Both the position numbers and the translations under genes were made by a program. The notes beneath the pieces were generated by a model. The model did not search any database. It saw only the letters and a program-made list of their open reading frames with translations, and was not told where the DNA came from. Below, one piece after another: positions 4,768 to 45,400 of a stretch of 64,000 nt of DNA. Source of the stretch: Terracidiphilus sp. (GTDB lineage: Bacteria > Acidobacteriota > Terriglobia > Terriglobales > Acidobacteriaceae); contig JBEKOA010000001.1 in NCBI GenBank assembly GCA_049522255.1, positions 4,216 to 68,215 of the forward strand, read 5' to 3'. Position 1 is the first letter of the stretch; each line of letters starts with the position of its first letter.

Positions 4768-6306
4768 CTAGGACCAGAACGCGGACGCATCGCGGAAACC
4801 CTTCAGCGCAGGCTTGAGACTCAGCAGGGCTTTGTGGCCCCGCTGCTTGCTCCATCGCGAAAGTGCGCTCGCCGGTATCGCCAAATCCGGTCGACTGGCA
4901 CTGACAAGCGAGAGAGCAAGACGCTTCGTCACTACAGCGTCGTTGGCCAGTCCGAGGATTTCTTGCAGCGCCTTGCATCGGCTGCGGTAGATCTTCACCG
5001 CTCGATGGCCATAGAGCCCGGCAAGGGATTCGACATCGAAGCACAGTTTCTTGAGCGATTTGCGCAATGCGTGGCGCTTAGTCACCGAAAGGCTATCGGC
5101 GTGACGACCGCGTTGCTTCGCCTTGTAGGCGGCGCGGCGCAGCAACGACGGCGCAAGGGTGCCGAGGCGCTTGCTCATACCGTTGTCGCACAGGGTCGAG
5201 AGATGGGTCGCTCCCCCTTCTGACCAGATCGCCAAGCCCAGCACCAATGCGGTGAACTCGTGCCCGCGCAGGGTGTCCGCCAAAACCGCGTGGGCAAACT
5301 GGCGCGCGACCTCGGCGACGACGTTAAGATCCTCCAGTCGCTCCGTCGGCAAATCCGCCTTCGCTGCCGACAAGGCTTCAAGGCAGAATACGTCCCAGTC
5401 ACGTGCCGCTCCAAGGATCTCTCCAAGGCGACGCAACCTTGTGTTGAAGCGCTCCGCACCAGCTGCGTCGAGGTGATGCTCGAACAACTGCAATACGGCG
5501 CGGGACTCGCGAACGGCGCTGCGGATCTGGTGAAGCGCCTCGGGGTCACCATGCAGGGTCGCCGCAATATTGGCCACCAAATGGCCCAGTGCGCCACCGA
5601 GAATCTCGCGAAACCCCAACGCGGCTTGGGTGGATCTCTCCAGTTTCGGCATCTGCCCGAGCTGTCCGCCTTCCGTCTGACCTGTGCGTAGATGCCAGCC
5701 GCGCGCCGCCTTACTCTCCGCCGAAATCCACATGGGCGCCAGGGCTTGTAGTTCGGCGGCAAGCTGGTACACCGGTAGAATGCTGCCTCTCTTGAGTTCC
5801 AATTCCAGTTCACTGACCGGCTCGCGTGCGGAACCTGCTTCGATGCTCCCTTCATCGATGGCCAATTCCACGACCGTGTTGTCGTCGAGGTGCAGAAGCC
5901 GAACGGTCCGCCGAATATCCGTGACAAATACCGGCTGGAGTCTATCCTTGATGGCCTCGGCGGCCTTCGCGAGCGCTCGGGTTGTCGCAAGCCGGCCTAC
6001 ATCCGGCTTGTTCTGGCCGATCCGCCATTCCCATTCGTTGCGGTCGGTCGAAATCCCACGGCCGGTCGGTCGGGACTTTACTGTCTGAGTATGCACGTTG
6101 CCATTTCGCCGCACCCGAAGCGTCAGCCCGGTCCGGTCCAGCAAATACTCGGCCGTATCGAAATATGTCGTCACTAGATGATGTCGTTTTGATTCAACGG
6201 CGGCAAGCGCGGGACTGGCTTCGAGCGCGACTCGGCTTCCGGGTGGGAGGTAAAACTTCAGCTCGATCTCGCGCGAATTTTCGAATTTGCCCAATCGAGG
6301 TCTCAT
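4768..6306 (-). CDS. CYTH plus CHAD domain protein (YgiF-like inorganic triphosphatase)
   Basis: EIELKF, YFDT, LRVR, ELELELK (CYTH); LHQIR..R and LG.ARDWDV, H.LR..LKKL (CHAD). Confidence 0.88.
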   Translation of the reverse strand: MRPRLGKFENSREIELKFYLPPGSRVALEASPALAAVESKRHHLVTTYFDTAEYLLDRTGLTLRVRRNGNVHTQTVKSRPTGRGISTDRNEWEWRIGQNKPDVGRLATTRALAKAAEAIKDRLQPVFVTDIRRTVRLLHLDDNTVVELAIDEGSIEAGSAREPVSELELELKRGSILPVYQLAAELQALAPMWISAESKAARGWHLRTGQTEGGQLGQMPKLERSTQAALGFREILGGALGHLVANIAATLHGDPEALHQIRSAVRESRAVLQLFEHHLDAAGAERFNTRLRRLGEILGAARDWDVFCLEALSAAKADLPTERLEDLNVVAEVARQFAHAVLADTLRGHEFTALVLGLAIWSEGGATHLSTLCDNGMSKRLGTLAPSLLRRAAYKAKQRGRHADSLSVTKRHALRKSLKKLCFDVESLAGLYGHRAVKIYRSRCKALQEILGLANDAVVTKRLALSLVSASRPDLAIPASALSRWSKQRGHKALLSLKPALKGFRDASAFWS

Positions 6307-10693: not shown

Positions 10694-10939
10694 ATGAAGG
10701 CTAGTACACGGCAACTCGAAGCGGTACCGGAGACATCTGAAGAGCAAAAGAATAGAGCTGACGTCGCTCACATCCTGGAAGAAGACGAGATCAAGCAAAT
10801 CTACCGGGACAGGAGTGCGGAAGACGCTCTCGACGAAGCAGAGGATAATGAAGCCGCAGTAGAAGAGGAAGTCGATGAGTTGGAAGAAGAAGATGACGTA
10901 GTCCGGGCCGCGCAAGGAAGCCGGAATTTGACTCCCTGA
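10694..10939 (+). CDS. Small, very acidic hypothetical protein
   Basis: AGGAGG RBS; E/D-rich 81 aa. Confidence 0.6.
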   Translation: MKASTRQLEAVPETSEEQKNRADVAHILEEDEIKQIYRDRSAEDALDEAEDNEAAVEEEVDELEEEDDVVRAAQGSRNLTP

Positions 10940-10987: not shown

Positions 10988-11182
10988 ATGACAAAGCTTA
11001 CGTATGAGGAGCGGAAGGAACTGCCCGAAGGGGAGTTTGTCTTTCCGAAGACGCGGCGCTACCCGATTGAGGACGCCGGGCACGCGCGAGATGCGCTGGC
11101 CCGGTCCAGCGGAAAGCCGGAACACACGACGGTGGTGGCGGCGGTCAAACGAAAGTATCCAGAGATCGATGTAGAGAAATGA
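10988..11182 (+). CDS. Small protein resembling the DUF6582 family (assignment from memory)
   Basis: ERKELP..EFVFP..RRYPI.D..HAR.AL pattern; CAGGAGG upstream. Confidence 0.65.
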   Translation: MTKLTYEERKELPEGEFVFPKTRRYPIEDAGHARDALARSSGKPEHTTVVAAVKRKYPEIDVEK

Positions 11183-11374
11183 GGAGCGGACTGCTACGGA
11201 GACGCTGGCCGGGCATCGTGGCTCGGGTCCCGTTCCAGATGACCGGCAAAGCCGTCCGTGTCTTTACAGGCTTGGCCCGATCCACGCGCAAGATCTCAGA
11301 CTTGCTTGGATAGCTGCAGCAAATTGAGTTGGGGCTGATTCCACACGATCAGCCCGTTGGCCACTTGGTTTGTG

Positions 11375-11399
11375 TTTTGCCCGCATTTTGCCCGCAAAT
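11375..11399 (+). repeat. Tandem direct repeat, integrase arm-type-like (TTTTGCCCGC x2 + AAAT)
   Basis: 10-mer at 11375 and 11386, 11-nt period, upstream of the tRNA-Ala fragment. Confidence 0.6.
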
Positions 11400-11475
11400 A
11401 GCGCCCAGTGGGCCGTTTTTGCCGGTTATGCCGGTTAGTAAGTACTGTGCCGTCTGTACTTTGCGGTTTGAACTG

Positions 11476-11519
11476 CTCCATGGCATGGAAGGCATCCGTT
11501 CGAATCCTACCAAGTCACC
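11476..11519 (+). pseudogene. Degenerate tRNA-Ala(GGC) 3' fragment (old att core)
   Basis: CTCC-ATGGCAT-GGAAG anticodon arm, GTTCGAATCC T-loop, then ..CCAAGTCACC; no 5' half. Confidence 0.5.
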
Positions 11520-11623
11520 CGCATGCTTGCTCAGATGCGGTTGGAAGGCCGTACTTAGGAAGAAGTCTCGGGCTGAACCTGCACATTCAGCCCACTAGCC
11601 CCACTGCGTTGATTGGTTGGAAA

Positions 11624-11648
11624 ATTTGGTAGCAATTTGGTAGCAAAT
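11624..11648 (+). repeat. Tandem direct repeat, integrase arm-type-like (ATTTGGTAGC x2 + AAAT)
   Basis: 10-mer at 11624 and 11635; related copy ATTTGGTGGCAAAT at 11808-11821. Confidence 0.7.
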
Positions 11649-11723
11649 GGCGCCGATTATGCCAGTTTTGCCGACTCATCCGGTTTATAACTCCTTTGCC
11701 GTCAACAAATCGTCCTACGGTTG

Positions 11724-11773
11724 CCACCTTCACACGGTGGAAGTCGCAGGTTCGAATCCTGCAGCGCCCACCA
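11724..11773 (+). mobile_element. tRNA-Val(CAC) 3' half = att core of an integrative element (not a complete tRNA)
   Basis: CCACC-TTCACAC-GGTGG anticodon arm, AAGTC, GCAGG-TTCGAAT-CCTGC T-arm, AGCGCCC-A-CCA; the upstream 25 nt lack GGGCGCT and a D-arm. Confidence 0.85.
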
Positions 11774-11776
11774 TAA

Positions 11777-11789
11777 AATCAATAACTTA
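11777..11789 (+). promoter_or_regulatory. IHF-binding consensus site next to the att core
   Basis: AATCAATAACTTA matches WATCAANNNNTTR exactly. Confidence 0.6.
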
Positions 11790-12111
11790 CGTCATTTCCG
11801 CAGAGCGATTTGGTGGCAAATGTTGAGAGCCCTTGCACAGCTCAGCCTGCGTCGGCCCCATTGCATTGACGGAACCGACCACCAGCTTCACACTTTCCGG
11901 CAGATTCGTTGGCCGCGGTCTCGGTCTACCTGCACGCCTGCGCCTCGGTCAGCGAGGCCAGAACTTCCATAGGACGCTCCTGGGACTTCTGCAACTTCAT
12001 TCCTCCGGACTCAAGCCTGAAAGCGCTCACGCCCGATCAGCGATCGCTCAGCCGACCGCCAGAGTCCATGGCGGCCTGAAAGCAAAAGCTGTCCGAAGTA
12101 CCGGGACCTCC

Positions 12112-13395
12112 TCAATCTCCCGCTGATTCTGTGTCATATGCAAGAACAGCCTCAGGGGTCTTCCCTTGACGAGTATTGCGATAGCTGAAAACCTGAGCAC
12201 GGCTCAGGGCAGCGGCTGTCCAGGTGAACTTCCAGTGCACGCCAAACTCCAGCAGTAACGCTACGCTGCCGAGCATCAGTCCGGCAAAACACATCAGGCC
12301 GGTCCCATAGCTTCCGAAGATGTCCTTGAGAGCGCCAAGAGCCGACGGAAGAAAGAATCCTCCCAGGCCGCCCGCTGCGCCAACAATGCCGGTGATCAGT
12401 TCAATGTCTGCCGGGAATCGTTGCGGCGCCATCTGAAAGACAGCTCCATTGCCCATACCCAGCATCCCCATGGAGACAAAGAGCATGGGCACCACGACCA
12501 CAATGGGCGGAAGACCACTGACAACCATGAGACAAACTGATATGCAGGCAAAGAGCGCGAGAAGCAATCTGTAACCTCCAATTCTATCGGCAAGCCATCC
12601 TCCGACAGGGCGCAGAAAACTTCCAGAGAGAACAACGATCGTGGTGAAGTCACCTGCCTGCACCTTAGTCAGGTGGTACTGATCGTGAAAGAAGACTGAG
12701 AGAAAGCTTGCCAAGCCCACAAAACCGCCGAATGTGAGGCTATAGAGGAAGCAGAGCCGCCATGTATCGCCCTGCCCAAGCAGTTGTGCGTATTGTCCCA
12801 AGGTTTTTGGTTTTGATTTCGTCGGACTGTTTTTGGCCAGGATCGAAAAGGCTGCTAGCACGAGCAAAACTGGAAGCAGTGCCAGCCCGAAGACAAAATG
12901 CCAACCAAAATGCTGCGCCAGTCGCGGTCCAAAGAAAGTTGCCAGAAGCGTCCCCGAGTTGCCTGCGCCTGCGATGCCCATGGCCAGTCCCTGATGCTCG
13001 GCGGGATACCATCGGCCCGCAAGGGGAAGTGCGACGGCGAAGCTTGCGCCAGCAATGCCCAGCAAGAATCCAATTGCATAGAACTGCCATAGCGCAGTGG
13101 CATAGTGCCAGCCAAGTACGAGGGGAACCAGCGTAAGTGTGAGACCAGTGAGACCAGCACGGCGGCCGCCGATGCGGTCGGCGAGTAACCCAAGAATGGG
13201 CCGGAAAAAAGAACCGCCCAGCAGTGGAATGGCGGTAAGCAATCCCTTTTGAGTTGCGGTCAAATGCATTTGATCAGCAATGAAAGGGGTCATGGGTCCA
13301 AAGAGAACCCACACCATAAAGCTGACGTCGAAGTAGAGAAATGCGGAAACAAGCGTGGGCAAGTGGCCGCTGGAAGCGAAAGATTTCTTGTCCAT
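12112..13395 (-). CDS. narK: NarK/NRT2-family nitrate/nitrite MFS transporter
   Basis: GSFFRPILG, GIAGASFAV, GAGNSG, TFGGFVG, GSFLRPVGGWLADR, GMGNGAVFQ nitrate signatures. Confidence 0.9.
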   Translation of the reverse strand: MDKKSFASSGHLPTLVSAFLYFDVSFMVWVLFGPMTPFIADQMHLTATQKGLLTAIPLLGGSFFRPILGLLADRIGGRRAGLTGLTLTLVPLVLGWHYATALWQFYAIGFLLGIAGASFAVALPLAGRWYPAEHQGLAMGIAGAGNSGTLLATFFGPRLAQHFGWHFVFGLALLPVLLVLAAFSILAKNSPTKSKPKTLGQYAQLLGQGDTWRLCFLYSLTFGGFVGLASFLSVFFHDQYHLTKVQAGDFTTIVVLSGSFLRPVGGWLADRIGGYRLLLALFACISVCLMVVSGLPPIVVVVPMLFVSMGMLGMGNGAVFQMAPQRFPADIELITGIVGAAGGLGGFFLPSALGALKDIFGSYGTGLMCFAGLMLGSVALLLEFGVHWKFTWTAAALSRAQVFSYRNTRQGKTPEAVLAYDTESAGD

Positions 13396-13436
13396 GTGCG
13401 ATCCTCCTGGGGCATTGATTTTGCGAATGAACTAGG

Positions 13437-15650
13437 TTATGAAGTCGGCGCTGCTTTGATGGGAGTGCGTTCGACGCGCACTGCGCATTGCTTGAAGTTG
13501 GGTTCGCGCGAAATGGGATCGAACGCGCTTTGCGTAATCTGATTGGCGTTGCTCTCGACAAAGTGAAAAGGAAGAAAGACCTGTCCTGGAGCAACGATCT
13601 CGGTAATGCGCAACTCAACCTTGCTGACCCGGCCACGCGCAGAGAGCACATCCACGCGATCGTGGGGACGCAAGCCCAGACGCTTCGCGTCCACCGGATT
13701 CATCTCCAGCCATGCGCGCGGAGAAAGGCGCTGCAAAATGTCGATGCCTCCGGTCTTGGTGCGGGTATGCCAGTGTTCTACGGTGCGCCCGGTATTGAGC
13801 ACAAAGGGATATTCTTTGTTGGGTTGCTCTGGAAAAGGAGCCCAGACGGTGGGAATCAGCCTGGCGCGTCCGTCTTCGGTCTGATACTGGCCATCGGTGT
13901 ATAGTCGCCGCGGCACAGTCGGGTCCAAAAAGGCTCCTTGCGGGTAGGGCCACTGGATTCCACCGTTGGACTCGATGGCATCGTAAGTCATGCCGGAGTA
14001 GTCGCAGAGCCTTCCTGCCGAGACGCGGCGCCACTCTTCAAATGCGTCGGTAGGCGTATTCCAGCCGGGGAATAGCTCTTCGCGGCAACCCAATCGTTCG
14101 GCGACAGCAAGAAAGATTTCGAAGTCGCTGCGTGCCTCGGCGGGTGGAGCGACAGCGGCATTGGCTTTGCTGGCGCGGCGTTCTGAGTTGGTGTAGGTCC
14201 CTTCTTTTTCTCCCCAAATGGCAGCAGGCAATACAAGATTGGCTAACTCGGTGGTGGGGGTTGGATGAAATCCATCCTGCACCACAAGAAAGTCCAGATT
14301 ACTCAGCGCATGTTTAAGTACATCGATATTTGGAAAGGAGACCAGGGGATTGGTGCCAATGATCCATAGCGCGCGAATCCTTCCCGCGACAGCAGCTTCG
14401 ATAATGTCAGGATAAGCAAGGCCACGTTGGGTGGGAATGCGCTCGATGGGAATGTTCCATAGGCGAGCCAGTTCTTTGCGGTCCACTTCAGATTCAAATT
14501 TCCGATACCCTGGGAGACCCGAAGCAAAGCCAGCCTCACGAGTGCCCATGGCGTTGCATTGTCCAGTGATGGAGAAAGGCGAAGCCCCGGCGCGCCCGAT
14601 GTTACCAGTAATCAGGGCAAGGTTGTTGATGGCATTAACGGTCTCGGTGCCCTTGGTGCTGTGATTCACCCCCATCGTCCATCCGATGAATGCAGCCTTG
14701 GCATTGCCGTAAAGTAGTGCCGTCCTATGAATCAGTTCCGGCGTGAGACCTGTGATCTTGGCTGCATGCTCCAGCGTGCAGGATTCGAGTGACGCGCGCA
14801 ATTCTTCAAATCCCGTAGTGTAATGCTCGACATATTGCTTGTCATAGAGATCCTCGTTGATGATGATGCGTAGCATGGCATTGATAAGTGCGAGGTCCGA
14901 TCGCGGCTTCAGGGGGAGATATACATCGGCCATCATCGCCGTTTTGGTAACGCGCGGATCGGCCACTATCATCGTTTTGCCGCGATTGCCTTCCAGGCGC
15001 GTACAGAGAATCGGATGATTCTCCGCAACATTGGCTCCGATGAGCAGAATGACATCCGCGGTCTCCAGATCGGCATAGGCGCCGGGCGGTCCATCGCTTC
15101 CAAAAGAACGCTTGTAGCCGGAGACTGCGGTGGACATACAAAGCGTGGTGTTACCGTCATAGTTGCGCGTGCCCAATCCCAGTTGCACCAGCTTGCCCAG
15201 CGCATAGAACTCTTCCGTAAGCAACTGGCCGGTACTGATGACGCCAACCGAATCAGGGCCATATTTGATTTGCGCGGCGCGAAAGCGCTCCACCATAGTT
15301 TCCACCGCTTCGTCCCAACCAACGCGTACTAGCTCATTGTTTTTTCGCAGCAACGGATACCTGGCGCGATCCTTAGCCTCGATTGTGTAGTGCTCTGACA
15401 AGCCTTTTGGACAAAGCTTGCCAAGGTTGACCGGGTGATCGCGATCCCCGCGAACGCTGACAACTTTTCCCTTGCTTACACCTAACTCCATTCCGCAACC
15501 TACAGAGCAGTATCCGCAGGTGCTTTTCACCCACGTTTCCGCATGTTTGCGGGTCGAGGTGAAGCCGAGCACCGGGTCAATCCCGTAACTGTATTTAGCG
15601 GAGAGGTTGTCCAGCCCGCTTTTGCGTAATACCCAGTCCAGCACACTCAT
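13437..15650 (-). CDS. nasA: Cytoplasmic Mo-bisPGD nitrate reductase catalytic subunit (NasA/NarB-type)
   Basis: CGYCSVGC..LCPKG [4Fe-4S]; NTTLCM Mo-Cys; GQCNAMGTRE; EKEGTYTNSERR; ATGA overlap with the upstream gene fixes the start at 15650; no Tat motif. Confidence 0.88.
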   Translation of the reverse strand: MSVLDWVLRKSGLDNLSAKYSYGIDPVLGFTSTRKHAETWVKSTCGYCSVGCGMELGVSKGKVVSVRGDRDHPVNLGKLCPKGLSEHYTIEAKDRARYPLLRKNNELVRVGWDEAVETMVERFRAAQIKYGPDSVGVISTGQLLTEEFYALGKLVQLGLGTRNYDGNTTLCMSTAVSGYKRSFGSDGPPGAYADLETADVILLIGANVAENHPILCTRLEGNRGKTMIVADPRVTKTAMMADVYLPLKPRSDLALINAMLRIIINEDLYDKQYVEHYTTGFEELRASLESCTLEHAAKITGLTPELIHRTALLYGNAKAAFIGWTMGVNHSTKGTETVNAINNLALITGNIGRAGASPFSITGQCNAMGTREAGFASGLPGYRKFESEVDRKELARLWNIPIERIPTQRGLAYPDIIEAAVAGRIRALWIIGTNPLVSFPNIDVLKHALSNLDFLVVQDGFHPTPTTELANLVLPAAIWGEKEGTYTNSERRASKANAAVAPPAEARSDFEIFLAVAERLGCREELFPGWNTPTDAFEEWRRVSAGRLCDYSGMTYDAIESNGGIQWPYPQGAFLDPTVPRRLYTDGQYQTEDGRARLIPTVWAPFPEQPNKEYPFVLNTGRTVEHWHTRTKTGGIDILQRLSPRAWLEMNPVDAKRLGLRPHDRVDVLSARGRVSKVELRITEIVAPGQVFLPFHFVESNANQITQSAFDPISREPNFKQCAVRVERTPIKAAPTS

Positions 15651-17284
15651 GCAGACTCCATGGAGAGATATTCGGTTGCAATGTTGCTGGGAACGACACT
15701 GACAAAGAAGAGATAGCGGCTCACGAATTCGCCGGCAATCAGAAGAAGTGCAACGGGAACAGCCATCCACCGAGTCTGCGCAAAAGGTACAAGCAACAGG
15801 CCCGCGCTGAGCAAAAGGAGGCGCAGCATCAAGAGATTCGAGAGTACGGTGAAAAGCAGGATGAAGACTCCGCGACGCTCATGCGCAGAGGAGCGGGCCA
15901 GCCAAACCATTTTCATGCCGGCGGCAAGAATCGTCGCGATACCGGTAACGATTACCGCCCGTTGCGTAAACGTGGCTGTTCCACTGAGAATGTTGGCGCC
16001 CGCAGAGCCGAGCAGCATGGCGGTCAGAAAGAACTCCACAATAGTGAATGGGGAGTTCCACCCTGGGCGTCCCGGCGCCAAATACAATCGTGCGCTGCAG
16101 CCGACGCCGGCTATGCCAAAGATGACAGTCAATCCACCTAAGACTGTAACTGTATGAGCAGGCAGCATCGCATTGATCTCGCGAAGAAGCAGAACGAGAG
16201 AGGTAGTGAGTTTTTGGAAGACGGCCATGTGTCTAAGATCGAAGCCACCGGGCAAGGTGATCCACAGCGCCGCGGAATACGCAGCCGCGGCGTTGGCAAA
16301 GAGAGTAAACATCAAGACTTCCCGGCTGAGCCATGATCGACGCCACATCTTCAAAGCGCGCACGGCATGAATCGGTCGCCCCAGATGCAGCGTTGAGGCT
16401 CCGAGCGCTACGGTTGCGATCATCAGCGCAACGAGTGCAGCCACGCAGTGCAGGTGAGCACCAAAGATCTGCATCAGCCATATGGAAGAAAATGCGCCTA
16501 CCGAAAGCTGTGTCAGAACGGTCATTACCACCAGCGGCCAATGAGCATGCTCGGGACGAAGACGGTTGAGATCCACTTTGGCGGAATCGCGTGGCATGCG
16601 ATTGGGCAGGGTGATACGCGTTGTGGATAGACTGTCGTCTGCCGAGGGCATCCCTGGCGCGTTTGCGTCGGTGCGATATTGTTCACGCCATTCCGCAGTG
16701 CGCACAATTTCAATGCGAATGGCGCCTTCCGGACAGGCAGAGACGCAGGCTGGATTTTGCCCCTCGGTCAGACGCCCGTAGCACATATCGCATTTACCGA
16801 CGACGCCGCGCTCCGGGTTGTACTGGGGCACGCCGTAAGAACAGTTCCAGGTGCAATATTGGCAACCAATGCAGATATCCGCGTTGTGGCGCACGATTCC
16901 AGTGGGGCCGTCTTTTGAGTAAGCGTCGACCGGGCAGCCCGTCATGCAAGTCGGCTCCAGACAGTGATTGCAGCCGATAGAGAGATAGTTGCGCTGGGTA
17001 TCCGGATAAGTGCCGCCTTCGATTTCGCCGACCCGCCGCCACAGAATGTCGGCAGGATTTCCGTTCTGCTCGTTGCAAGCCACCACGCAACACTTGCAGC
17101 CGATGCACTTGGTCATGTCGAAATGAAAACGATATTGTTCGCCCGGTCCCGGTGGAGGCGGAAGAGGAACATCGACTCCGCTGCCGCACAACTGAACCAA
17201 CCCCTGCCCGGAATTTTGGGCAGAGGTCGTCAGGTTGAAGGCATCGTCGCCGGCCTTGACCCGTTCGAGTAAGGGAAGTTCCAT
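15647..17284 (-). CDS. Fused 4x[4Fe-4S] DmsB/NrfC-type subunit and DmsC/YnfH membrane anchor
   Basis: CIGCKCCVVAC, CNHC..TC..GCP, CIGCQYCTWNC, CDMC..PACVSACP, then ~8 TM with HWPLV.MTVLTQ and S.LHLGRP..A.RA...WRRSWLSRE; GGAG RBS before ATG 17284. Confidence 0.85.
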   Translation of the reverse strand: MELPLLERVKAGDDAFNLTTSAQNSGQGLVQLCGSGVDVPLPPPPGPGEQYRFHFDMTKCIGCKCCVVACNEQNGNPADILWRRVGEIEGGTYPDTQRNYLSIGCNHCLEPTCMTGCPVDAYSKDGPTGIVRHNADICIGCQYCTWNCSYGVPQYNPERGVVGKCDMCYGRLTEGQNPACVSACPEGAIRIEIVRTAEWREQYRTDANAPGMPSADDSLSTTRITLPNRMPRDSAKVDLNRLRPEHAHWPLVVMTVLTQLSVGAFSSIWLMQIFGAHLHCVAALVALMIATVALGASTLHLGRPIHAVRALKMWRRSWLSREVLMFTLFANAAAAYSAALWITLPGGFDLRHMAVFQKLTTSLVLLLREINAMLPAHTVTVLGGLTVIFGIAGVGCSARLYLAPGRPGWNSPFTIVEFFLTAMLLGSAGANILSGTATFTQRAVIVTGIATILAAGMKMVWLARSSAHERRGVFILLFTVLSNLLMLRLLLLSAGLLLVPFAQTRWMAVPVALLLIAGEFVSRYLFFVSVVPSNIATEYLSMESA

Positions 17285-17931
17285 CGATAGCTCCATCGTG
17301 TGCGGCACGCGCAATGTGCGAAGAGGACTGGTGTCAGGGACACGCCGCCCTCGACCGATGACGGTTGCTCTCAGACGTTCGAGCCCCTGTAATTTGTTGG
17401 TGGTTTGGCGATCAGGCCAGGCTCTTCGCGGAGCCAACTGGAAATCACTTCAGCTTGGGGAAGCATCCGGCACACTGGGCCAGACCTTCGCGGTGTGAGC
17501 TCTCTCAAAAGAGTCTCATTCCGCGTGGAGTGATTGCGTTGAGCATAGCGTCAAATAAGAATCAATGCAAGTAGATTCTGGTTTTGAACAATCTGTGCAG
17601 AAATCTCATTCAATATGCGTGGAAAAGCACCTTCCACTCTTGTATTCCCGATTGGATGCGTGTTAAAGCGAAGTCGGAGAGTTTCCCCATTCACCTTGCC
17701 CCGGGCATTCTTCGGGAGGTGATGATTGGGTCATTGCTTCTCTTCAGGCTTCTATCGAGTGTGACCAACGGACTATGTTTTTGCCGATCTTTAATCATGC
17801 GATACTGGAGTTGAAGATTGCTTCGAGTCCGCTGGATTCATGCGGAAATGGAGCGACGCAACTTTGCGCTGCCCGCTCTTCGTATCTTCCATCTGTGTCC
17901 ATTTCTTCTAACCCAGCACACGGAGAGACCC

Positions 17932-19611
17932 ATGCCAGGGGCGAATTTTGAAGGTCTACGGGTTCTGAGTCTGGAAGCACGCCGCGCGAATGAAGTTGCC
18001 AAGCTGATTCACACCTATGGTGGCGAGCCGCTTACGGCGCCGGCGATGCGGGAGATTCCTCTCGAAGAAAATCATCCGGTGATTGAATTCGCTCAGGCCC
18101 TGATGCGGGGAGCCTATGATCTGGTGATCTTCACAACCGGGGTGGGCGTCCGTTCTCTGGTCAAGATCGTCTCCGAGCGTCTGGATCGCGAGCAGTTTCT
18201 TGCTGCCCTGCGCGGCGTGAAGATTGCCGCCCGCGGTCCCAAGTCCTCCAGCGCGTTGCGGGAGTTGCAGATCCCCATCACGGTAGTTTCTCCAGAGCCA
18301 TTCACGTGGCGTGCTCTGATGCCGGCGCTTGAAGAGAAGCTGGGCCCAGAGATGGATGGCATGAACATCGCCGTGCAGGAGTACGGAACATCAAATCCAG
18401 AGTTGCTGACAGCGCTGGCAGAGAAGAGCATTTCAATTACCCGTCTTCTTGTCTATCAATGGGCATTGCCGGAAGACATTCAGCCCTTACGTGAAGCCGT
18501 GCTTGCTCTTGCGCATGGACACGTCGATATCGTGCTCTTCATGAATGCCGGGCAGGTCATGCATCTGTTTCTCATGGCCGAACGCATGGGCTACACAGAG
18601 GCGCTGCATGAAGGACTCCGCTCTACGCTGATCGCTTCGATTGGTCCCAGCACGACCGAAGGAATGTCTGCCTACGGACTGCACCCAGATTTTGAGCCAA
18701 CGCAATCGAAGATGGGCTTCCTGATCAACGAGCTGGCGCAACATGGGCGGTCTCTTTTGAATAAAAAACGCTCCGATGCAGCGTTACATGTTACCAGCAC
18801 TCCACCACCTCCCGTCAGTCCGCTGCTGCAGAGCGGCGCCCAGCCTATTGCAACGGTAGAGCCTGCCATCCCCTCGCCAGTCGATTTTCTGCACGAGATA
18901 GGCAGCCGCATGGCAGCCTCAGACCCGCTGCACACGGTGCTTGATCGCATAGTTGACTTTGCCTGTACAGTCATCAACTGCGATTCTTGTTTTGTCTACG
19001 TGCTGGAAGACAATCAGCTGGTTTTGCGCGCATCCAAAACCCCCCATGCGGATCTGGTGGACCATCTGGGAATCTGGCTTGGCCAAGGCATTACCGGGTG
19101 GGTTGGATGGCATCGCGAGCCGGTTGCGATCTCAGCGAATGCACTGCAGGATCCACGCTTCAAGCGCTTTCCAAATGTGCCGGAAGATGCGTTTGAGGCG
19201 TTTCTTTCCGTTCCAATTCTTTGTCGCGGGAAGCTGGTCGGAGTCATTAATTTGCAGCATCGCAGGCCCTATCAGCATGCAGAAAATGAAGTCCGGCTGC
19301 TGACGACGATCGGCCATCTGGTGGGCGCGGAGTTGGAGCGGGCGCGCCTGGAAACCGAAAACGTCCAACTCTCAGATCGCCTGGAATCGCGCAAACACAT
19401 TGAACGCGCCAAGGGAGTATTGCAGCGCGATTTCGCCCTGGATGAAGAGGCTGCCTACAAGGCCATGCAGCGGGAGAGCCGTCAGCGTCGCAAATCGATG
19501 CGCGAGATTGCCGAGGCAATTATTCTCAACGAAGATCTGCGCAAGAGCCGTTTGGGAGAAGCAAATAGACCGGCAGCGCATGAAGATGGTATAAGGAAAG
19601 CCAAGAATTGA
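17932..19611 (+). CDS. HemD(uroporphyrinogen-III synthase)-like, GAF and ANTAR three-domain fusion
   Basis: N-terminal HemD pattern (IFTTGVGV, ARGPK, VQEYG, SIGPST); GAF (DSCFVYV..LVLRAS..GITGWV..AFLSVPI..GVINL); ANTAR (RKHIERAKGVL..EEAAY..MQRESR); GGAG RBS. Confidence 0.88.
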   Translation: MPGANFEGLRVLSLEARRANEVAKLIHTYGGEPLTAPAMREIPLEENHPVIEFAQALMRGAYDLVIFTTGVGVRSLVKIVSERLDREQFLAALRGVKIAARGPKSSSALRELQIPITVVSPEPFTWRALMPALEEKLGPEMDGMNIAVQEYGTSNPELLTALAEKSISITRLLVYQWALPEDIQPLREAVLALAHGHVDIVLFMNAGQVMHLFLMAERMGYTEALHEGLRSTLIASIGPSTTEGMSAYGLHPDFEPTQSKMGFLINELAQHGRSLLNKKRSDAALHVTSTPPPPVSPLLQSGAQPIATVEPAIPSPVDFLHEIGSRMAASDPLHTVLDRIVDFACTVINCDSCFVYVLEDNQLVLRASKTPHADLVDHLGIWLGQGITGWVGWHREPVAISANALQDPRFKRFPNVPEDAFEAFLSVPILCRGKLVGVINLQHRRPYQHAENEVRLLTTIGHLVGAELERARLETENVQLSDRLESRKHIERAKGVLQRDFALDEEAAYKAMQRESRQRRKSMREIAEAIILNEDLRKSRLGEANRPAAHEDGIRKAKN

Positions 19612-19622
19612 TCGCAACTTGC

Positions 19623-19718
19623 TTGTGATCTCTATCGAGTTGCGCTAGTCTAACCCTAAGAGTGAGACAAGGCTGTCTCCTCGGGTTCTCTCTTCCCCGC
19701 ACCACGCCGTGCCTGGGG
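19623..19718 (+). promoter_or_regulatory. Putative sigma70 promoter and candidate ANTAR-type tandem hairpins in the nirA leader
   Basis: TTGTGA-N17-TAGTCT (19623-19651); GAGAC-AAGGCT-GTCTC (19664-19679); GCAC-CACGCC-GTGC (19699-19712). Confidence 0.5.
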
Positions 19719-19886
19719 CCTTCAGACCACAATCCCTTTACTCCATGCTCCGTGATGAGCCTTGAATTCTCCGCATTGTTTGCGGCATTCATCGGGTCTC
19801 AACGCCGCTTTGCGCACGCGCACACAAGCGCTTTCAACGGGCAGTCCGGTCCTCCTCATGGATGGACTACTGGAAGGAGTGATGGC

Positions 19887-21665
19887 ATGGAAACGCTGGA
19901 TACCCTCAATTCCCAGGATTTCACGGCAGTACAGAAGGAGTATCTTCTCGGCATCTTTTCGACTGCCACGCATCATGGCTTGCGTCCTTTCGCGGGCCAC
20001 ACCGCGACCGGGCTGCTGACCAACGATTCAACTCTTGGCTCGATCAATCTGGCGGAACCGCAAGAGGAGACCTACCACGGAACGCCAGTCTCCGATCTCT
20101 GCCGCGAAGAGCGATGGAAGTATGAGCAGAATCCTCTTGATATCTGGGACAAGCTGCTGGCTCATGCAGATGAAAATCGAACACCGGCAGCGGATGATCT
20201 TTTCCGCTTCAAATTTCACGGGCTATTTTACGTAGCTCCCGCGCAGGACTCCTTCATGCTCAGGCTGCGCGTCCCAGGCGGCATTCTTACCGCTCACCAA
20301 ATGCGCGGCCTGGCGGCGATGGCCTCCGATTGGGGATCGGGCCGCGTGGACATTACGACCCGTGCCAACCTGCAGATTCGCGAATTCCAGCCGAAAGAAA
20401 TTGTTCGCGTGCTCAACAAGCTGCAATCGCTTGGGCTTACCTCGCGCGGTTCAGGCGCAGACAATATTCGTAACATCACGGCTTCGCCGATCACCGGACT
20501 CGATCCCACTGAACTCTGCGATGTGGCGCCGCTGGCCGATGCGCTTCACCATTACATTCTGAATAGCCGCGATCTGTATGGGTTGCCGCGCAAATTCAAC
20601 GTAGCCTTCGACAATGGAGGCGCCATCAGCGTCGTTGCCGATACCAACGATATTGGCTTTGTTGCTGTCCGCGTTGGTGAAGGGCGCAGCCTTCCCACGG
20701 GCGTTTATTTTCGAGTATTGTTGTGCGGCATTACTGGGCACAAACAGTTCGCTACCGATTGCGGCTTGCTGTTACGCGCCGATCAGACCGTGGCTGTTGC
20801 CGCTGCCATGATACGTGTCTTCAGCGAGAACGGCGACCGAACGGATCGCAAAAAAGCGCGCCTGAAATACCTGGTGGATCGCTGGGGCGTCGACAAGTTT
20901 CTGGATGAGACTGAAATGCGTTTGTCCTTCCCGCTGATCCGCGTTCCGATCAATGAGTGCGAGCCGCGCCTGCCGATTGATCGCGCCGGCCACATCGGTG
21001 TTCACGCGCAACGTCAAGACGATCTGCACTATATTGGGATCTCCGTGCCGGTTGGCCGTCTTCCTGCCGCGCAGATGCTGGCCCTGGCTGACATAGCCAG
21101 CAGTTACGGCAGCGGGGAGTTGCGACTCACGGTCTGGCAGAACCTGTTGATCCCAAACATTCCAACCGCTCATCTGGATGCGACGTTGGCTGCGCTTCAA
21201 GCTGTCGGTCTTGATTGCACGGCAGGGACTGTTCTGCGAGGCACTGTTGCCTGCACAGGAAATCGCGGCTGCAAGTATGCATCGACCGACACCAAGACAC
21301 ACGCGGTTGAATTGGCCAGTCTGCTTGATGCACGATTCAAGATTGAACAGCCGGTCAATCTTCATGTGACCGGTTGTCCCCACTCCTGCGCACAACATTA
21401 CATCGGCGATATCGGCCTGCTCGGCATGAAGGTTGGCGGCGCCGAAGGCTATCAAGTGGTAATCGGTGGAGGCTCGGATCTGGACAAAGGCCTGGCGCGC
21501 GAGCTAATCCCTGCTATCGCCTATAGTGATTTGCCCCCCATGATGGAACGGCTCTTTGCCGCCTATATCGAACAGCGGAAGAGAGATGAGTCCTTCCTGG
21601 ATTTCAGCCGTAGACACAGCACTGCGGAGTTGCAATCGTTTTGCGCGGCAAAGGAGCGGAGATAG
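19887..21665 (+). CDS. nirA: Siroheme-[4Fe-4S] nitrite reductase, NirA family
   Basis: FKFHGLF, MLRLRVPGG, ITTRANLQIR, GADNIRN, LPRKFN, ACTG..GC, TGCPHSCAQH; GAAGGAG RBS. Confidence 0.88.
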   Translation: METLDTLNSQDFTAVQKEYLLGIFSTATHHGLRPFAGHTATGLLTNDSTLGSINLAEPQEETYHGTPVSDLCREERWKYEQNPLDIWDKLLAHADENRTPAADDLFRFKFHGLFYVAPAQDSFMLRLRVPGGILTAHQMRGLAAMASDWGSGRVDITTRANLQIREFQPKEIVRVLNKLQSLGLTSRGSGADNIRNITASPITGLDPTELCDVAPLADALHHYILNSRDLYGLPRKFNVAFDNGGAISVVADTNDIGFVAVRVGEGRSLPTGVYFRVLLCGITGHKQFATDCGLLLRADQTVAVAAAMIRVFSENGDRTDRKKARLKYLVDRWGVDKFLDETEMRLSFPLIRVPINECEPRLPIDRAGHIGVHAQRQDDLHYIGISVPVGRLPAAQMLALADIASSYGSGELRLTVWQNLLIPNIPTAHLDATLAALQAVGLDCTAGTVLRGTVACTGNRGCKYASTDTKTHAVELASLLDARFKIEQPVNLHVTGCPHSCAQHYIGDIGLLGMKVGGAEGYQVVIGGGSDLDKGLARELIPAIAYSDLPPMMERLFAAYIEQRKRDESFLDFSRRHSTAELQSFCAAKERR

Positions 21666-21667
21666 CT

Positions 21668-23440
21668 ATGTCCACCAACCCTCCCTATATTCCCGATAAT
21701 GCTCCCTTCACACCAGAACAGCGAGCGTGGCTCAACGGCTTTCTTGCCGGACTGTTTGCAGGCGATGGTCAGCAGGCTGCCGCTGCGGAGTCCAAACCAT
21801 CGCATCGCATTGCGATTCTTTATGCCTCGCAATCCGGCACTGCCGAAGGGCTGGCGCGCAGGCTGGCCAAGGAACTTAAGGCTCAGGGCCATCAGCCAGT
21901 GGTCTCAACATTGGTCGGCTATTCGCCGGCCGCGCTGGCGTCGGAGAAATATGCACTGATCTTTGCCAGCACTTATGGCGATGGTGAAGCTCCCGATGGC
22001 GTTCAGCCATTTTTTGAAGAACTCTGTCTTGAGCACTTTCCTCGCTTCGAGGGATTGTCTTACTCCGTCTTCGCGCTCGGAGATCGCCACTACGAAAACT
22101 TCTGCAAGTTTGGCAACGATCTTGACAGCAAACTGGCTGCATTGGGTGCCAATCGCCTGGCCAATCGTGTCGATTGCGATGTGGATGTCGATGAGCCGTT
22201 AGTGCAATGGAAAGCGGAAGTTCTTCCGCGGCTTAATGAATCGGCGCCAGCACTCAAGCTTTCAAGGGCCGCTTCAACCGCCGTGGCAGTGGCGGAAAGG
22301 CCAGCGCCAAATGCCTCGTTTACGCGCGATAATCCGGTCTTTGCTCCGCTGATTCACAAAAAAGATCTTACGCACAAGACCTCCAGCAAGACGACACTTC
22401 ATCTGGCATTCTCCATTGAGGGAACGGGTATTCAGTATGAATCCGGCGACGCCTGCGGTGTTCTGCCCGCAAACGATTGCAACCTGGTCGCCGAGATCCT
22501 GCAAGCTCTACGCTTCAACGGCAACGAGCGGGTTCAATGCGGTAAGGCAGAAACCATTCCTCTTCACAATGCGTTAACTCACCATCTGCAAATCACCCGC
22601 CTGAATCGCAAGATGGTCACTGAATATGCAAACCTGGGCAAGTGCGCGCTGCTCTCTTCGCTGCTGGAACCCAGGCAGCAGCCGGAACTGGACAGATACC
22701 TCTACGGCCGAGGACTGATTGACCTGTTGATCGAGTATCCTGGCGTGGTGCAGAGCCCGGAAGAACTTGTGGCAATGCTGCCCAAACTTACGCCGCGTCT
22801 CTATTCCATATCCTCCAGCCCCATTGCTCATGCCGGGCAAATTCATACCACAGTGGCCGTGGTGCGCTACAGCGCGCACAACCGTGAGCGCGGAGGAGTG
22901 TGCTCGACGCTCTTTGCCGATCGCGCTTCCGTCTCTGACCGTTTGCCTCTTTACATTCAACCGAACAAGCGGTTCAAATTGCCAAATGATTCCGACGCCC
23001 CCATGATCATGATTGGACCCGGCACGGGCATTGCGCCGTTCCGTGGCTTTCTGCACGAGCGCCGCGCACTGGGGGCCAAGGGAAAAAACTGGCTCTTCTT
23101 TGGTGAGCGCAGCGCAACAACCGATTACCTTTATCGGGACGAGTTGGAGGCCATGCAGGCCGATGGGCATCTGACCCGCTTGGATACTGCTTTCTCGCGC
23201 GATCAGGAAGATAAGATCTACGTGCAGGATCGTATGCTGGAGCAGGCTCCGTTGTTTTGGAGTTGGTTGCAGGATGGGGCTAGTGTTTACGTCTGCGGTG
23301 ACGCGTCACGAATGGCGAAGGATGTGCATGGAGCCTTGCAAACCATTGTTCAAACGCAAGGGGGAATGCCGGCGATTGCTGCGGAGGAATATGTGGAAAC
23401 CCTGAAAGAGCAGCATCGCTACCATCGGGATGTGTACTGA
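21668..23440 (+). CDS. CysJ-like diflavin (FMN/FAD/NADPH) reductase
   Basis: YASQSGTAE, STYGDGEAP, ALGD..Y..FC, PRLYSISSS, MIGPGTGIAPFRGF, YVQD, YVCGDA, YHRDVY. Confidence 0.9.
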   Translation: MSTNPPYIPDNAPFTPEQRAWLNGFLAGLFAGDGQQAAAAESKPSHRIAILYASQSGTAEGLARRLAKELKAQGHQPVVSTLVGYSPAALASEKYALIFASTYGDGEAPDGVQPFFEELCLEHFPRFEGLSYSVFALGDRHYENFCKFGNDLDSKLAALGANRLANRVDCDVDVDEPLVQWKAEVLPRLNESAPALKLSRAASTAVAVAERPAPNASFTRDNPVFAPLIHKKDLTHKTSSKTTLHLAFSIEGTGIQYESGDACGVLPANDCNLVAEILQALRFNGNERVQCGKAETIPLHNALTHHLQITRLNRKMVTEYANLGKCALLSSLLEPRQQPELDRYLYGRGLIDLLIEYPGVVQSPEELVAMLPKLTPRLYSISSSPIAHAGQIHTTVAVVRYSAHNRERGGVCSTLFADRASVSDRLPLYIQPNKRFKLPNDSDAPMIMIGPGTGIAPFRGFLHERRALGAKGKNWLFFGERSATTDYLYRDELEAMQADGHLTRLDTAFSRDQEDKIYVQDRMLEQAPLFWSWLQDGASVYVCGDASRMAKDVHGALQTIVQTQGGMPAIAAEEYVETLKEQHRYHRDVY

Positions 23441-42470: not shown

Positions 42471-45400
42471 GTGGCCACTCCGCCTCTTTCCGTCCTGATG
42501 AACCAGCCGCCGCTGGAGCATGAGCGCTTTGCTGCGCACCGTGAGTTGGAAGCTCTCCTCAAGGCCACACTTCGCGGAGATGTTCGGTTCGACCTGGGCT
42601 CGCGGGCGCTCTACGCGGCCGACTCGTCGAACTACCGCCAGCTTCCGGTGGGCGTCGTTGTGCCCCGCGATGCCGCAGACGTAGAGGCCGCTCTCGCCGC
42701 CTGCCGCGCAACAGGAGCCGCAGTCTTGCCGCGGGGCGCGGGCACCAGCCTGGCCGGCCAATGTGCCAACGTGGCCGTGGTCTTCGACTACTCGAAGTAC
42801 ATGCGCGGCCTGACGTCGATCGATCCCGATGCAAAGTTGGCGCGCGTCGAGCCGGGTCTGGTTCTCGACCGGTTGCGCGAGGCCGCCGAACGGCATCACC
42901 TGACCTACGCTCCCGACCCTGCGACGCATTCGCGCTGCACGCTGGGCGGCATGATCGGTAACAACAGTTGCGGTGTCCACGGATTGCTGGGGGGTAAGGT
43001 CGTGGACAACGTCGAATCACTCGATCTGATCTTGTATGACGGAACGCGAATGACAGTGGGCCGCACCAGCCCCGCAGAGCTTGAGAGATTGATTCGCTCT
43101 GGTGGTCGCGCAGGCCAGATCTATGCAGGTCTCGCACGTCTTCGCGATCGCTACGGAAACCTTGTCCGCGAGAAGTTTCCACGCATTCCACGGCGCGTCT
43201 CCGGCTACAACCTCGATGAATTGCTCGACGAGAATGGCTTCAATGTGGCCCGTGCGCTGGTGGGATCGGAGGGCACCTGCGCTACCGTCGTCTCAGCCAC
43301 GCTGAACCTCATCGCCAGTCCGCCCTTTCGCATACTCACGGCATTGGCCTTTGCCGACGCATTCCAGGCCGCCGACGCCGTGCCGCGCGTGCTTGAACTC
43401 GGGCCCATCGGCCTGGAAGGCTTTGACGCTATGCTCGTCGATTTCATGCGCCGCAAGGGTCTGGCCGTGGACGATGTTGCGCTGCTGCCCCAGGGAGGCG
43501 GGTTCCTGCTGGTCGAAATGGGCGCATGGAACGAGGCTGAGGCGCAGGCAAAAACCGACGCACTCGTCAGTGCGTCCCAAAGCTGGTCGGTCTCACCAGT
43601 AGCCCGCATCTACAACGCTGCCGACGCCGCCCGCATCTGGCATGTGCGCGAATCGGCACTGGGTGCAACCGTCTTCGTCCCCGGCGAGCCCGACGGCTGG
43701 GAAGGCTGGGAAGACGCAGGCATTCCTCCTGCTAGGCTGGGCGCCTACCTGCGCAAGTTGGTCGCGCTGTTGGGTGAGTATGGCTATCGCAGCCCGCTCT
43801 ACGGTCATTACGGACAGGGCTGCGTGCACCTGCGCATCAACTTTGACTTCCGTAGCGAAGAGGGGCTGCGCAAATACCGCGAGTTCATCGAGAGAGCCGC
43901 CGACCTGGTGCTCAGCTTTGGCGGGTCGCTCAGCGGCGAACACGGTGACGGACAGTCTCGCGCCGCTCTCTTGCCCAAGATGTTTGGTCCGGAGCTGATG
44001 CAGGCCTTCCGCGAGTTCAAGGCGCTGTGGGACCCGGAGAACCGCATGAATCCCGGCAAGCTGGTGGATGCGGTGCGCGTCTACGACCCCGTCGAGAATC
44101 TTCTCCACGGCTTGCCCGCAGCGCCGGGTCACGCGCACTCCAAACCGGAGACGCATTTCGTCTTTGCCGCCGATGGTGGATCGCTGCGGCGCGCCACCGA
44201 GCGCTGCGTGGGTGTGGGCGCATGCCGCAAGAGTGAGGGCGGCGTGATGTGTCCCAGTTACCGCGCTACGGGCGAGGAACAGCACTCCACGCGCGGCCGC
44301 GCACGACTGCTCTGGGAGATGCTGGCCGGCGCGCTGCGCGAAGAGGGCTTCAAGAGCCGCGCCGTGCATGAAGCGCTCGATCTCTGCCTCAGTTGCAAAG
44401 CCTGCAAGAGCGAGTGCCCGGTGCAAGTAGACATGGCAGCTTATAAGTCGGAGTTTCTGGCGCAGCACTATGAGGGACGGATGCATCCACTGCATCACTA
44501 CATCTTTGGCTTTGCCGACCGGCTTGCGCGGCTGGGCTCGTTCGCTCCGGCGCTGACCAATGCCATCCTGACCGGTCCGATCACAAGCCCTCTGATCAAG
44601 CACATCGTAGGCATTGCGCAAGAGCGGCAACTGCCTCGATTGGCAGCCAAGAGCTACCAGCAGAGCCGCACCTCAATTCGCGCTCAGCAAAGACTGGGAT
44701 ACGATGAACCCCATCCGGTTACCTCAAGTCTCGATTCTGAGACCTGGGAAACTACGAAACTCAAGCAGGTCTTACTTTGGCCTGACACGTGGAATAACTA
44801 TTATCATCCGCAAACGCTGGCTGCGGCGGAATCCGTTCTCACTTTGGCTGGCTTCCGCGTTGAAGTTCCGCGCGGACATATCTGCTGCGGAAGGCCGCTT
44901 TATGACTTCGGCCTGCTCGACGCAGCCCGCGTGTATCTTGCCAGGGTCCTCAACCGCATGGATTCGCAGATCGAAGCTGGGCTGCCTTTCATTTTTCTCG
45001 AACCCAGTTGCGCCAGTGTCTTCAAGGATGAGTTACTGGAACTATTCCCAAAAGACACGCGCGCGCGGCGCATGAGCGGGCAAGTCTGGCTGCTAGCCGA
45101 CTTTCTCGCCGCCAAGGCTCCGAAGTTCTGGGCCGGTCGACTTACCGGAGCGCAGATTCTGCTTCATGGCCACTGCCACCACAAAGCGGTCTTCGGCGGA
45201 CCAGCCAGTGAAATAGCCCTGCTGCGCAAGGCCGGCGCCACGGTCGAACCCATCCAGGCCGGCTGCTGCGGCATGGCCGGCCCGTTTGGATTTGAGGCGG
45301 ACAAGTTCGAGGTTTCCAAAAAGATTGCCGAAGACAGTCTGCTGCCTGCTGTCCGGTCCGCAGGACCCATGACCATCATCGTCGCCGATGGCTTCAGTTG

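Follow-up and report, generated by a model that had tools for sequence, protein, structure and literature searches.

Stacked attachment-site remains of tRNA-Ala(GGC) and tRNA-Val(CAC) type in a Terracidiphilus genome: a probable dead junction of tyrosine-integrase elements

The attachment site (attP) of lambda-type integrating elements, as in phage lambda, HP1 and mycobacteriophage L5, is built of a P arm, a core, an H' site for integration host factor (IHF) and a P' arm. In the Streptococcus ICESt family, integrative and conjugative elements (ICEs) and cis-mobilisable elements (CIMEs) accrete in tandem at tRNA genes. Where elements insert into tRNA genes (tDNA), the attP is about 250 bp long and contains a tDNA fragment, commonly centred on the anticodon, and tandem arrays as well as damaged fragments are known (PMC4383910). 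Here we analysed a 64-kb (64,000-nt) stretch of Terracidiphilus sp. DNA (contig JBEKOA010000001.1, positions 4,216 to 68,215, forward strand), hereafter the window, in which positions 11332-11945 are very probably a dead junction left by integrative elements (ICEs, mobilisable elements) of Acidobacteriaceae with lambda-type tyrosine integrases and tRNA targets. The junction is a known kind of genomic fossil and not a new system; in the literature searched, we found no description of this tRNA-Val(CAC)/tRNA-Ala(GGC) element family.

The feature lies in a 930-nt non-coding gap that separates a DUF6582 gene from a gene for a nitrate/nitrite transporter of the major facilitator superfamily (MFS), and consists of two head-to-tail homologous units of about 240 nt each. 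Both units have a common layout: a hairpin, about 20-30 nt, two 11-nt direct repeats, a conserved spacer, and the 3' part of a tRNA. The original prediction, which described two stacked att scars with homologous arm regions at 11375-11773, had the repeats and tRNA parts right but was drawn too small, since the hairpins, a third repeat and an integrase remnant have to be added. The parts of the feature are as follows (L numbers denote related loci).

11332-11355 (+), hairpin 1, GGGCTGAT-N8-ATCAGCCC, outer limit of the Ala-type P arm; equally placed in every Ala-type unit, and the point where homology between loci begins
11375-11396 (+), arm-type direct repeats of unit 1, TTTTGCCCGCA twice, period 11; identical in 7 other genomes, and also 3' of tRNA-Ala plus trailer in peat contigs
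11397-11475 (+), P-arm spacer of unit 1, with AAAT-AGCGCC, three 9-nt GCCGNTTNT repeats and TAAGTACTGTGCCGTC; from repeat and unit alignment
11476-11523 (+), core and decayed tRNA-Ala(GGC) 3' part of unit 1; from homologous loci (unit 1 against L024, 91.5% over 188 nt)
11570-11593 (+), hairpin 2, GGGCTGAA-N8-TTCAGCCC, outer boundary of the Val-type P arm
11624-11645 (+), arm-type direct repeats of unit 2, ATTTGGTAGCA twice, period 11, P arm; the same motif with period 10 is the P' arm beside intact integrase genes
11646-11721 (+), P-arm spacer of unit 2, homologous to 11397-11475
11722-11773 (+), tRNA-Val(CAC) 3' part from about position 25/26 to CCA, core and identity block; identical to 38 full tRNA-Val genes
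11774-11790 (+), 17-nt trailer TAAAATCAATAACTTAC, within the attB/attP identity block; follows tRNA-Val with and without an integrase
11808-11819 (+), P' arm-type repeat ATTTGGTGGCAA, one copy where relatives have two; an 11-nt loss as compared with L056
11808 to about 11945 (-), 3' remnant of a tyrosine integrase gene; from tblastn and DNA identity to L056 and L075

We found that the repeats and motifs on which the original prediction was based all lie where it had placed them. In both units, the repeat pair is followed by AAAT-RGCGCC, TTTTGCCG and CCGGTT, and both spacers contain AAAT-RGCGCC, three copies of the 9-nt repeat GCCGNTTNT and a conserved block, TAA..GCCGTC. The combined motif GCGCC-N6-GCC-N2-TTTTGCCG-N6-CCGGTT has exactly 2 matches in the window as compared with 0.00 expected from 100 shuffles, and ATTTGGTRGCAA has 3 exact copies, all at this feature, as compared with 0.41 expected. 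Over about 200 aligned nucleotides the two units show 76% mean column identity, with a head-to-tail period of 238-257 nt, in agreement with the predicted homology of their arm regions. A 661-nt region was recovered with 100% identity in six independent spanning metagenome assemblies and with 99.7-99.8% identity in two more; since it is near-identical across independent assemblies, an assembly artefact is excluded. The 9-nt GCCGNTTNT repeats may be candidate sites for an excisionase or accessory protein.

The tRNA identities proposed for the two units, Ala(GGC) and Val(CAC), were borne out. In unit 2, the anticodon arm (stem-loop 11724-11740, anticodon 11731-11733), the T arm, the acceptor 3' strand and the CCA of tRNA-Val(CAC) are all intact, so that identity with the full genes extends from inside the tRNA to its 3' end. 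The Rfam tRNA model scored this part at 23.9 bits (E 0.02), which is below the gathering score because the 5' third of the molecule is missing. In metatranscriptome contigs, the 5' half of true tRNA-Val transcripts, GGGCGCTTAACTCAGCGGTAGAGTG, meets the window sequence at 11722-11725, and one such contig reads through a complete tRNA-Val into the trailer of the window and then into CCTTGGTAGCATTT. Unit 1 still has an intact anticodon loop, ATGGCAT (11480-11486), and an intact GGAAG strand; its T arm and acceptor have decayed and can no longer pair, and ARAGORN and Rfam gave no match to the tRNA part (11476-11523). The Ala identity is clear only from homologues and not from the window copy alone: the matching position in nine related Acidobacteriaceae loci is an intact tRNA-Ala(GGC) 3' part with the ATGGCAT loop, an AGGTC variable region, a GTCGG-TTCGATC-CCGAC T arm, CAGGTCC-A-CCA, U at position 70 and A73-CCA, and the Ala-type units L018 and L024 carry a compensatory T-stem change. 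Across loci, the 5' strand of the Ala anticodon stem is unconserved, so that identity with the tRNA starts at the loop; in metagenome contigs the true tRNA-Ala 5' half is found as a loose end whose joint lies where the anticodon stem begins. Unit 1 retains its P arm and anticodon stem-loop, and has no trace of a trailer, P' arm or integrase. Within it, 11332-11491 (P arm and anticodon stem-loop) is about 91% identical to other genomes, and the T-arm/acceptor part (11492-11523) has about 10 changes in 33 nt and a Val-like T-loop (GTTCGAATCCT).

These properties resemble those of the tDNA islands in Islander/TIGER, in particular those with the anticodon-centred 'A' sublocation, in which a displaced 3' tRNA fragment lies in gene orientation, the anticodon stem marks the start of the identity block, the integrase gene and the tRNA converge, and attP is about 250 bp long. 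The locus differs from them in that the window has neither the cognate full tRNA gene nor an intact integrase gene, and in that relics of two tRNAs are stacked away from any tRNA gene.

Related units were collected by a scan for the spacer motif in one genome per species, using a strict 22-base motif that diverged extra copies would escape. The scan gave 19 matches, of which 13 loci with 14 units are in metagenome-assembled genomes (MAGs) of Acidobacteriaceae/Terracidiphilus, with at most one Ala-type and at most one Val-type match per sampled genome. Homology between loci is confined to about -75 to +145 nt of the motif start, and the flanks are unrelated. Three units of the family terminate in a tRNA-Val(CAC) part and nine in an intact tRNA-Ala(GGC) part; unit 1 is closest to the Ala-type L024, and unit 2 is 90% identical to the Val-type L016. 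The arm repeats of the family keep a constant TTTG-NNN-GCA skeleton, with a middle that varies by locus (CCC, GTA, TC, GCGT). Two loci are mixed junctions, L015 having an Ala core with TTGGTAGCA P' repeats, and L022 having P and P' repeats that differ in kind. Contigs aligned to L022 contributed little more, as assemblies are interrupted at the tRNA. Six scan matches (L012, L013, L021, L025, L028 and L029) were rejected as false positives, being coding repeats or from unrelated taxa. The viral contigs scanned held no true unit, no Ala or Val 3' half and no relative of the integrase, the sole viral match (L030) being a Gly/Pro-rich coding repeat, and the plasmid collection gave no DNA match and only integrases of about 25% identity.

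A scan of metagenomes for a full tRNA-Val(CAC) gene followed by the trailer returned 36 loci. In about 22 of them, the tRNA-Val gene runs into TAAAATCAAYAACTTAC, which is separated by about 20 nt from a double repeat, and an integrase gene or its remnant comes next on the opposite strand. The double repeat is mostly CCTTGGTAGCATTTGGTAGCAAAC, with the variants TTGTGGCG, TTGATGCCA and TTGGCAGC, and the P' arm in 12 element-host junctions of the attL kind is two copies of TTGGTAGCA. Another 11 loci carry the trailer alone and are empty bacterial attachment sites (attB); the presence of the trailer at these unoccupied sites places it in the identity block of attB and attP. In unit 2, the repeat motif is found on both sides of the core, in the P arm (11624-11645) with the period 11 and in the P' arm (one copy at 11808-11819; period 10 in the paired repeats of the related loci), which indicates that the repeats are arm-type sites and that the core is centred on the anticodon stem-loop. 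The suggestion that the tandem 11-nt repeats are arm-type is thus supported by the same motif beyond the core, beside intact integrase genes at real tRNA-Val genes. Peat metagenome contigs (depth 18-48) join the tRNA-Ala end, the trailer and about 19 nt to TTTGCCCGCATTTTGCCCGCAAAT, and the Ala-type repeat 3' of tRNA-Ala and trailer is TTTGCCCGCA, twice. The Ala and Val att sites share the arrangement of hairpin, spacer, trailer and repeat, and differ in the core and in three central bases of the arm repeat.

The trailer also holds AATCAATAACTTA (11777-11789), the sole match in the window to WATCAANNNNTTR, which we take to be the IHF consensus; it is conserved in the units and in attB, and presumably occupies the position of the lambda H' site. 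By its consensus and position, this is a candidate IHF-type site. Upstream of the full tRNA-Val(CAC) gene, a CTCTAACCYAYGGGATGCCCCGCTGGCGC motif is conserved at a distance of 30-60 nt in many of the loci L031-L066 and is possibly a promoter or leader. A gene for an extracytoplasmic function (ECF)-type sigma factor is the host-side neighbour in most of the looked-up tRNA-Val loci that reach past the tRNA.

The integrase at these sites is a protein of about 400 residues that matches PF00589 at 2.8e-13, as well as PF22022 and PF14659 (Pfam), and belongs to a family of 1159 proteins at E<=1e-10. Every looked-up member converges on a full tRNA-Val(CAC) gene, and a gene with an HTH_17 (excisionase-like) domain precedes the integrase gene wherever the looked-up contig extends upstream. 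The element at L075 encodes a relaxase and a NikA-like protein, and those at L080-L085 encode TrbI, a lytic transglycosylase, an AAA ATPase and an AbiE pair; this cargo of relaxase/NikA or TrbI/transglycosylase indicates that the elements are mobilisable or conjugative integrative elements. One identical integrase adjoins two different host flanks, which may be an indirect sign of recent movement. The called integrase open reading frames (ORFs) cross the P' repeats and stop inside the trailer. They end at a TGA that lies within the 17-nt trailer, at a distance of 5 nt from the end of the tRNA (L056, L063 and others; proteins P0001-P0120), the repeat type is legible from the tail of the protein (LLPNATK, MPQNATNFIQ or LPQKAAN), and a few called ORFs continue antisense through the tRNA (..GFEPTTSTV). 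In an AlphaFold2 (AF2) model, residues 9-65 form three strands and a helix at a predicted local distance difference test (pLDDT) score of 66-85, and would, with fair confidence, have the topology of known arm-binding domains. The identity ratio between repeat types is 0.88 for the first 45 residues as compared with 0.95-0.98 elsewhere, a ratio uncorrected for relatedness, which hints weakly at a possible covariation of the N-terminus with the repeat type. At L038, L043, L066, L045, L062 and L033, integrase stumps or decayed P' repeats lie right after intact tRNA-Val genes; in-place decay of these elements is common.

A relic of such an integrase gene is present in the window. From 11774 to about 11945, the DNA shares 75-82% identity with the attL-integrase regions of L056 and L075, and the minus strand to the right of unit 2 encodes integrase residues 358-389 (72% identity over 32 residues, E 4e-6, tblastn), the remnant amounting to about 45 codons when a few more residues are included. 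An 11-nt deletion within it removes the codons around the catalytic tyrosine (ANEYMQE). No integrase similarity was found beyond about 11945, nor by tblastn elsewhere in the window. The window thus has a mere remnant of a PF00589 gene beside the att site, and intact genes are found at the homologous attL sites of related contigs. Neither a Pfam search of the ORFs closest to the units nor tblastn of L011-L030 at E<=10 revealed an integrase next to a unit. A regular expression for catalytic motifs also returned no integrase; the expression would miss this family, which has LRR and not HxLRH. Together with the repeats and trailer found at full tRNA-Val genes next to integrases, the remnant agrees with the view of the original prediction that these are att-site remains of tyrosine-integrase elements.

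The arrangement is like that of a lambda-type attP in having paired arm repeats at helical spacing on both sides, an IHF-consensus site between the core and the P' repeats, repeated short motifs in the interval from the P-arm repeats to the core, which is the usual place of excisionase sites, and an excisionase-like gene ahead of the integrase gene. It differs in that the protein-DNA contacts here are predicted from sequence, that the integrase N-terminus has no Pfam arm-binding match, and that the integrase frame crosses the P' repeats and stops inside the trailer.

From these data we propose the following origin of the junction. The N-terminal arm-binding domain of the integrase would bind the 9-11-nt arm repeats on both sides of the core, the complex perhaps being completed by IHF-type bending of the trailer DNA and by an excisionase with sites in the 9-nt repeats. 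The anticodon stem-loop forms the core, and a copy of the tRNA sequence that extends from about position 26 to the CCA, together with the 17-nt trailer, is present on the element. Strand exchange probably takes place in the anticodon loop, in which case integration would rebuild the tRNA and leave the displaced 3' part at the opposite end of the element. Since unit 2 has a P arm, a core, a P' arm and an integrase stump, it is in the attP configuration and is not a plain attR; the original prediction of att scars is therefore retained for the att origin, and modified in that unit 2 is more than a simple attR. Such a junction could have formed when a second element inserted into an existing attR, or between tandem elements, and the rest of the integrase gene and of the element would later have been lost in a deletion that reached the end of the nitrate-transporter gene. 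Unit 1 would be the P arm and core of a sister site of the Ala(GGC) type, with the remainder of its tRNA decayed. Neither unit is functional in cis, and either could be a substrate for an integrase supplied in trans. This scheme is similar to accretion of the ICESt type, in which insertion into an att site followed by deletion gives internal att junctions and integrase-less remnants. It is different in that the arrays there occupy one tRNA or gene target, whereas here the modules of two tRNAs adjoin in a remnant of about 600 bp.

Several results weigh against this interpretation. The window has no full tRNA-Val, tRNA-Ala or other tRNA gene and no integrase gene, and hence no cognate full tRNA gene in the same orientation with an element in between; a search for full tRNA genes and integrases, proposed with the original prediction, succeeded for tRNA-Val genes and integrases in related metagenome contigs. 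The upstream 11 kb is housekeeping-like (aldehyde dehydrogenase, YjeF, ABC transporter), so that the relic is not visibly at the end of a tRNA-anchored island. No Ala-type integrase was recovered with a peptide deduced from the loose ends of metagenome contigs, and no contig had both the attL and the attR of one element; from shared repeats and identity blocks, we presume that these same elements end on their far side in the P-arm units. Pfam gave no match, including to an arm-binding domain, for integrase residues 1-85, the model of the whole integrase is poor (mean pLDDT 46), and binding by IHF and an excisionase is read from consensus and position only. In addition, no attR was found in the available upstream flanks (1.5-10 kb) of seven integrase loci, and no conjugation or mobilisation genes, as expected of an ICE, were found among the large ORFs scanned in 1-26 kb of the window.

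The homologous arms on Ala and Val sites indicate that one element family uses both targets and has changed its target. The original prediction further held that the stack records integrase retargeting, either by an element that switched its tRNA or by capture of one island inside another. The use of both tRNAs by the family stands, but a switch or capture at this very locus does not follow, because each unit matches its own type in other genomes at about 90% identity and its neighbour at only about 76%, which points to an old divergence of the Ala and Val types. In one version of such a switch, a single element would have gained a Val-type cassette (hairpin, P arm, core, P' arm and integrase) beside an old Ala attP, whose core and P' arm then decayed, and the stack would record the change of target. 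Stacks of different tRNAs do recur (L027 has Val and then Ala), the junctions of L015 and L022 are mixed, of the two units in the window the one next to the integrase remnant is intact, and the looked-up tRNA-Val loci hold no other tRNA. Since the tRNA-Ala and tRNA-Val genes are not neighbours in these loci, insertions at adjacent tRNA genes fail to explain the stack and were dropped as its cause. However, none of the live elements seen had two attP modules, the hybrid junctions are explained equally well by serial insertion into old att sites, and nothing dates a switch to this locus; we therefore regard the exchange of modules within one element as possible but rather unlikely. The same doubt attaches to the broader proposal that elements swap whole integration cassettes and keep old P arms stacked by the active attP, which would make Ala(GGC)/Val(CAC) retargeting histories readable, although the junctions of L015 and L022 give a hint that arm-repeat and core specificity would assort independently under such an exchange. 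Serial insertion into old att sites and swapping of cassettes within an element both fit the data.

The units could also belong to a resident island, unit 1 and possibly unit 2 being the working attR of an island that extends to the left past the window start, with its tRNA and integrase more than 11.7 kb away. The orientation is the one expected of an island to the left, unit 1 has preserved its P arm and anticodon stem-loop well (about 91%) and has decayed in the parts dispensable for excision, the phage-related DUF6582 gene lies just upstream, and the synteny with relatives ends precisely on the opposite flank of the relic. We consider this improbable, since the upstream 11 kb holds ordinary metabolic and repair genes and no mobility genes, there is no composition step, and the integrase of unit 2 itself is truncated. 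That the units are structured-RNA genes with a tRNA-like 3' domain, or halves of split tRNAs, might be suggested by the low copy number per genome and type in our scan, the 85-94% identity across species between unalignable flanks, the compensatory T-stem change in two loci, and the appearance of an Ala-type unit in metatranscriptome contigs at depth 3-6. But the 5' strand of the Ala anticodon stem is not maintained and the acceptor 3' strand has no partner; no consensus structure exists past the hairpin and tRNA arms (z-scores -1 to -1.9), no promoter or terminator and no Rfam family were matched, the RNA depth is 10-50 times lower than that of the tRNA in contigs that continue into the flanks, and the same repeats and trailer flank real tRNAs beside integrases. 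This reading was rejected as very improbable on the results for structure, promoter and terminator, Rfam and coverage. Hardly credible at all is a tandem duplication in situ of one att scar of about 240 nt followed by divergence, to which the head-to-tail order, the regular period and some similarity even upstream of the hairpins would correspond; the units carry different tRNAs and are closer to their own types elsewhere than to each other, and the duplication was rejected on this ground. A dead junction of integrative elements thus remains our preferred interpretation.

The relic itself has no role for the cell, and its value is that of a pointer to a large element family in peat Acidobacteriaceae whose attachment-site anatomy is readable straight from the sequence. 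The sister att sites offer natural material on how tyrosine integrases change their target and arm specificity, and the att sites of the family would be useful for integration vectors in a phylum with few genetic tools.

Further irregular units were noticed in the related genomes. In L027 (minus strand, about 5140-6260), a decayed Val-type unit is followed by 230 nt and a truncated Ala-type unit, and about 200 nt past the latter we recognised by eye a third fragment resembling a tRNA T-arm/acceptor (GTGGAAGTTCGATCCCCACTAGCCGCCCCA), for which Rfam gave no support. On the minus strand of L019, CGCAAATAGCGCCC, which equals the end of the Ala-type repeat and the start of the spacer, lies 3 nt past the Val CCA, after which homology ends; this is another truncated stacked module. 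The Ala fragment at about 160-175 in L026, with NN and a duplicated cgatcccg, looks like a scaffolding artefact of that MAG.

The non-coding gap is bordered by the following genes.

10988-11182 (+), DUF6582 gene, left neighbour of the gap
12112-13395 (-), nitrate/nitrite MFS transporter gene, right neighbour, its end facing the gap

The 64-residue DUF6582 protein matches the phage family phrog_16160 (PHROG, E 9.6e-13), and its gene could be the final cargo gene of the lost element; nothing matched the 81-residue ORF beside it (10694-10939). Farther away, a c-di-GMP-II-GAG riboswitch model aligned at 43576-43640 (-) with 27.5 bits as compared with a gathering score of 40 (E 0.42), probably by chance. 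On the right, relatives with 75-88% identical DNA have the nitrate cluster in common with the window as far as the transporter stop codon and diverge beyond it, so that the relic sits at, and marks, a synteny break beside the nitrate-assimilation cluster. This cluster (12112-23440) comprises the NNP-family nitrate/nitrite transporter, a molybdopterin oxidoreductase, a Fer4/DmsC-like subunit, a HemD-GAF-ANTAR regulator, a nitrite/sulfite reductase and a flavodoxin/FAD reductase.

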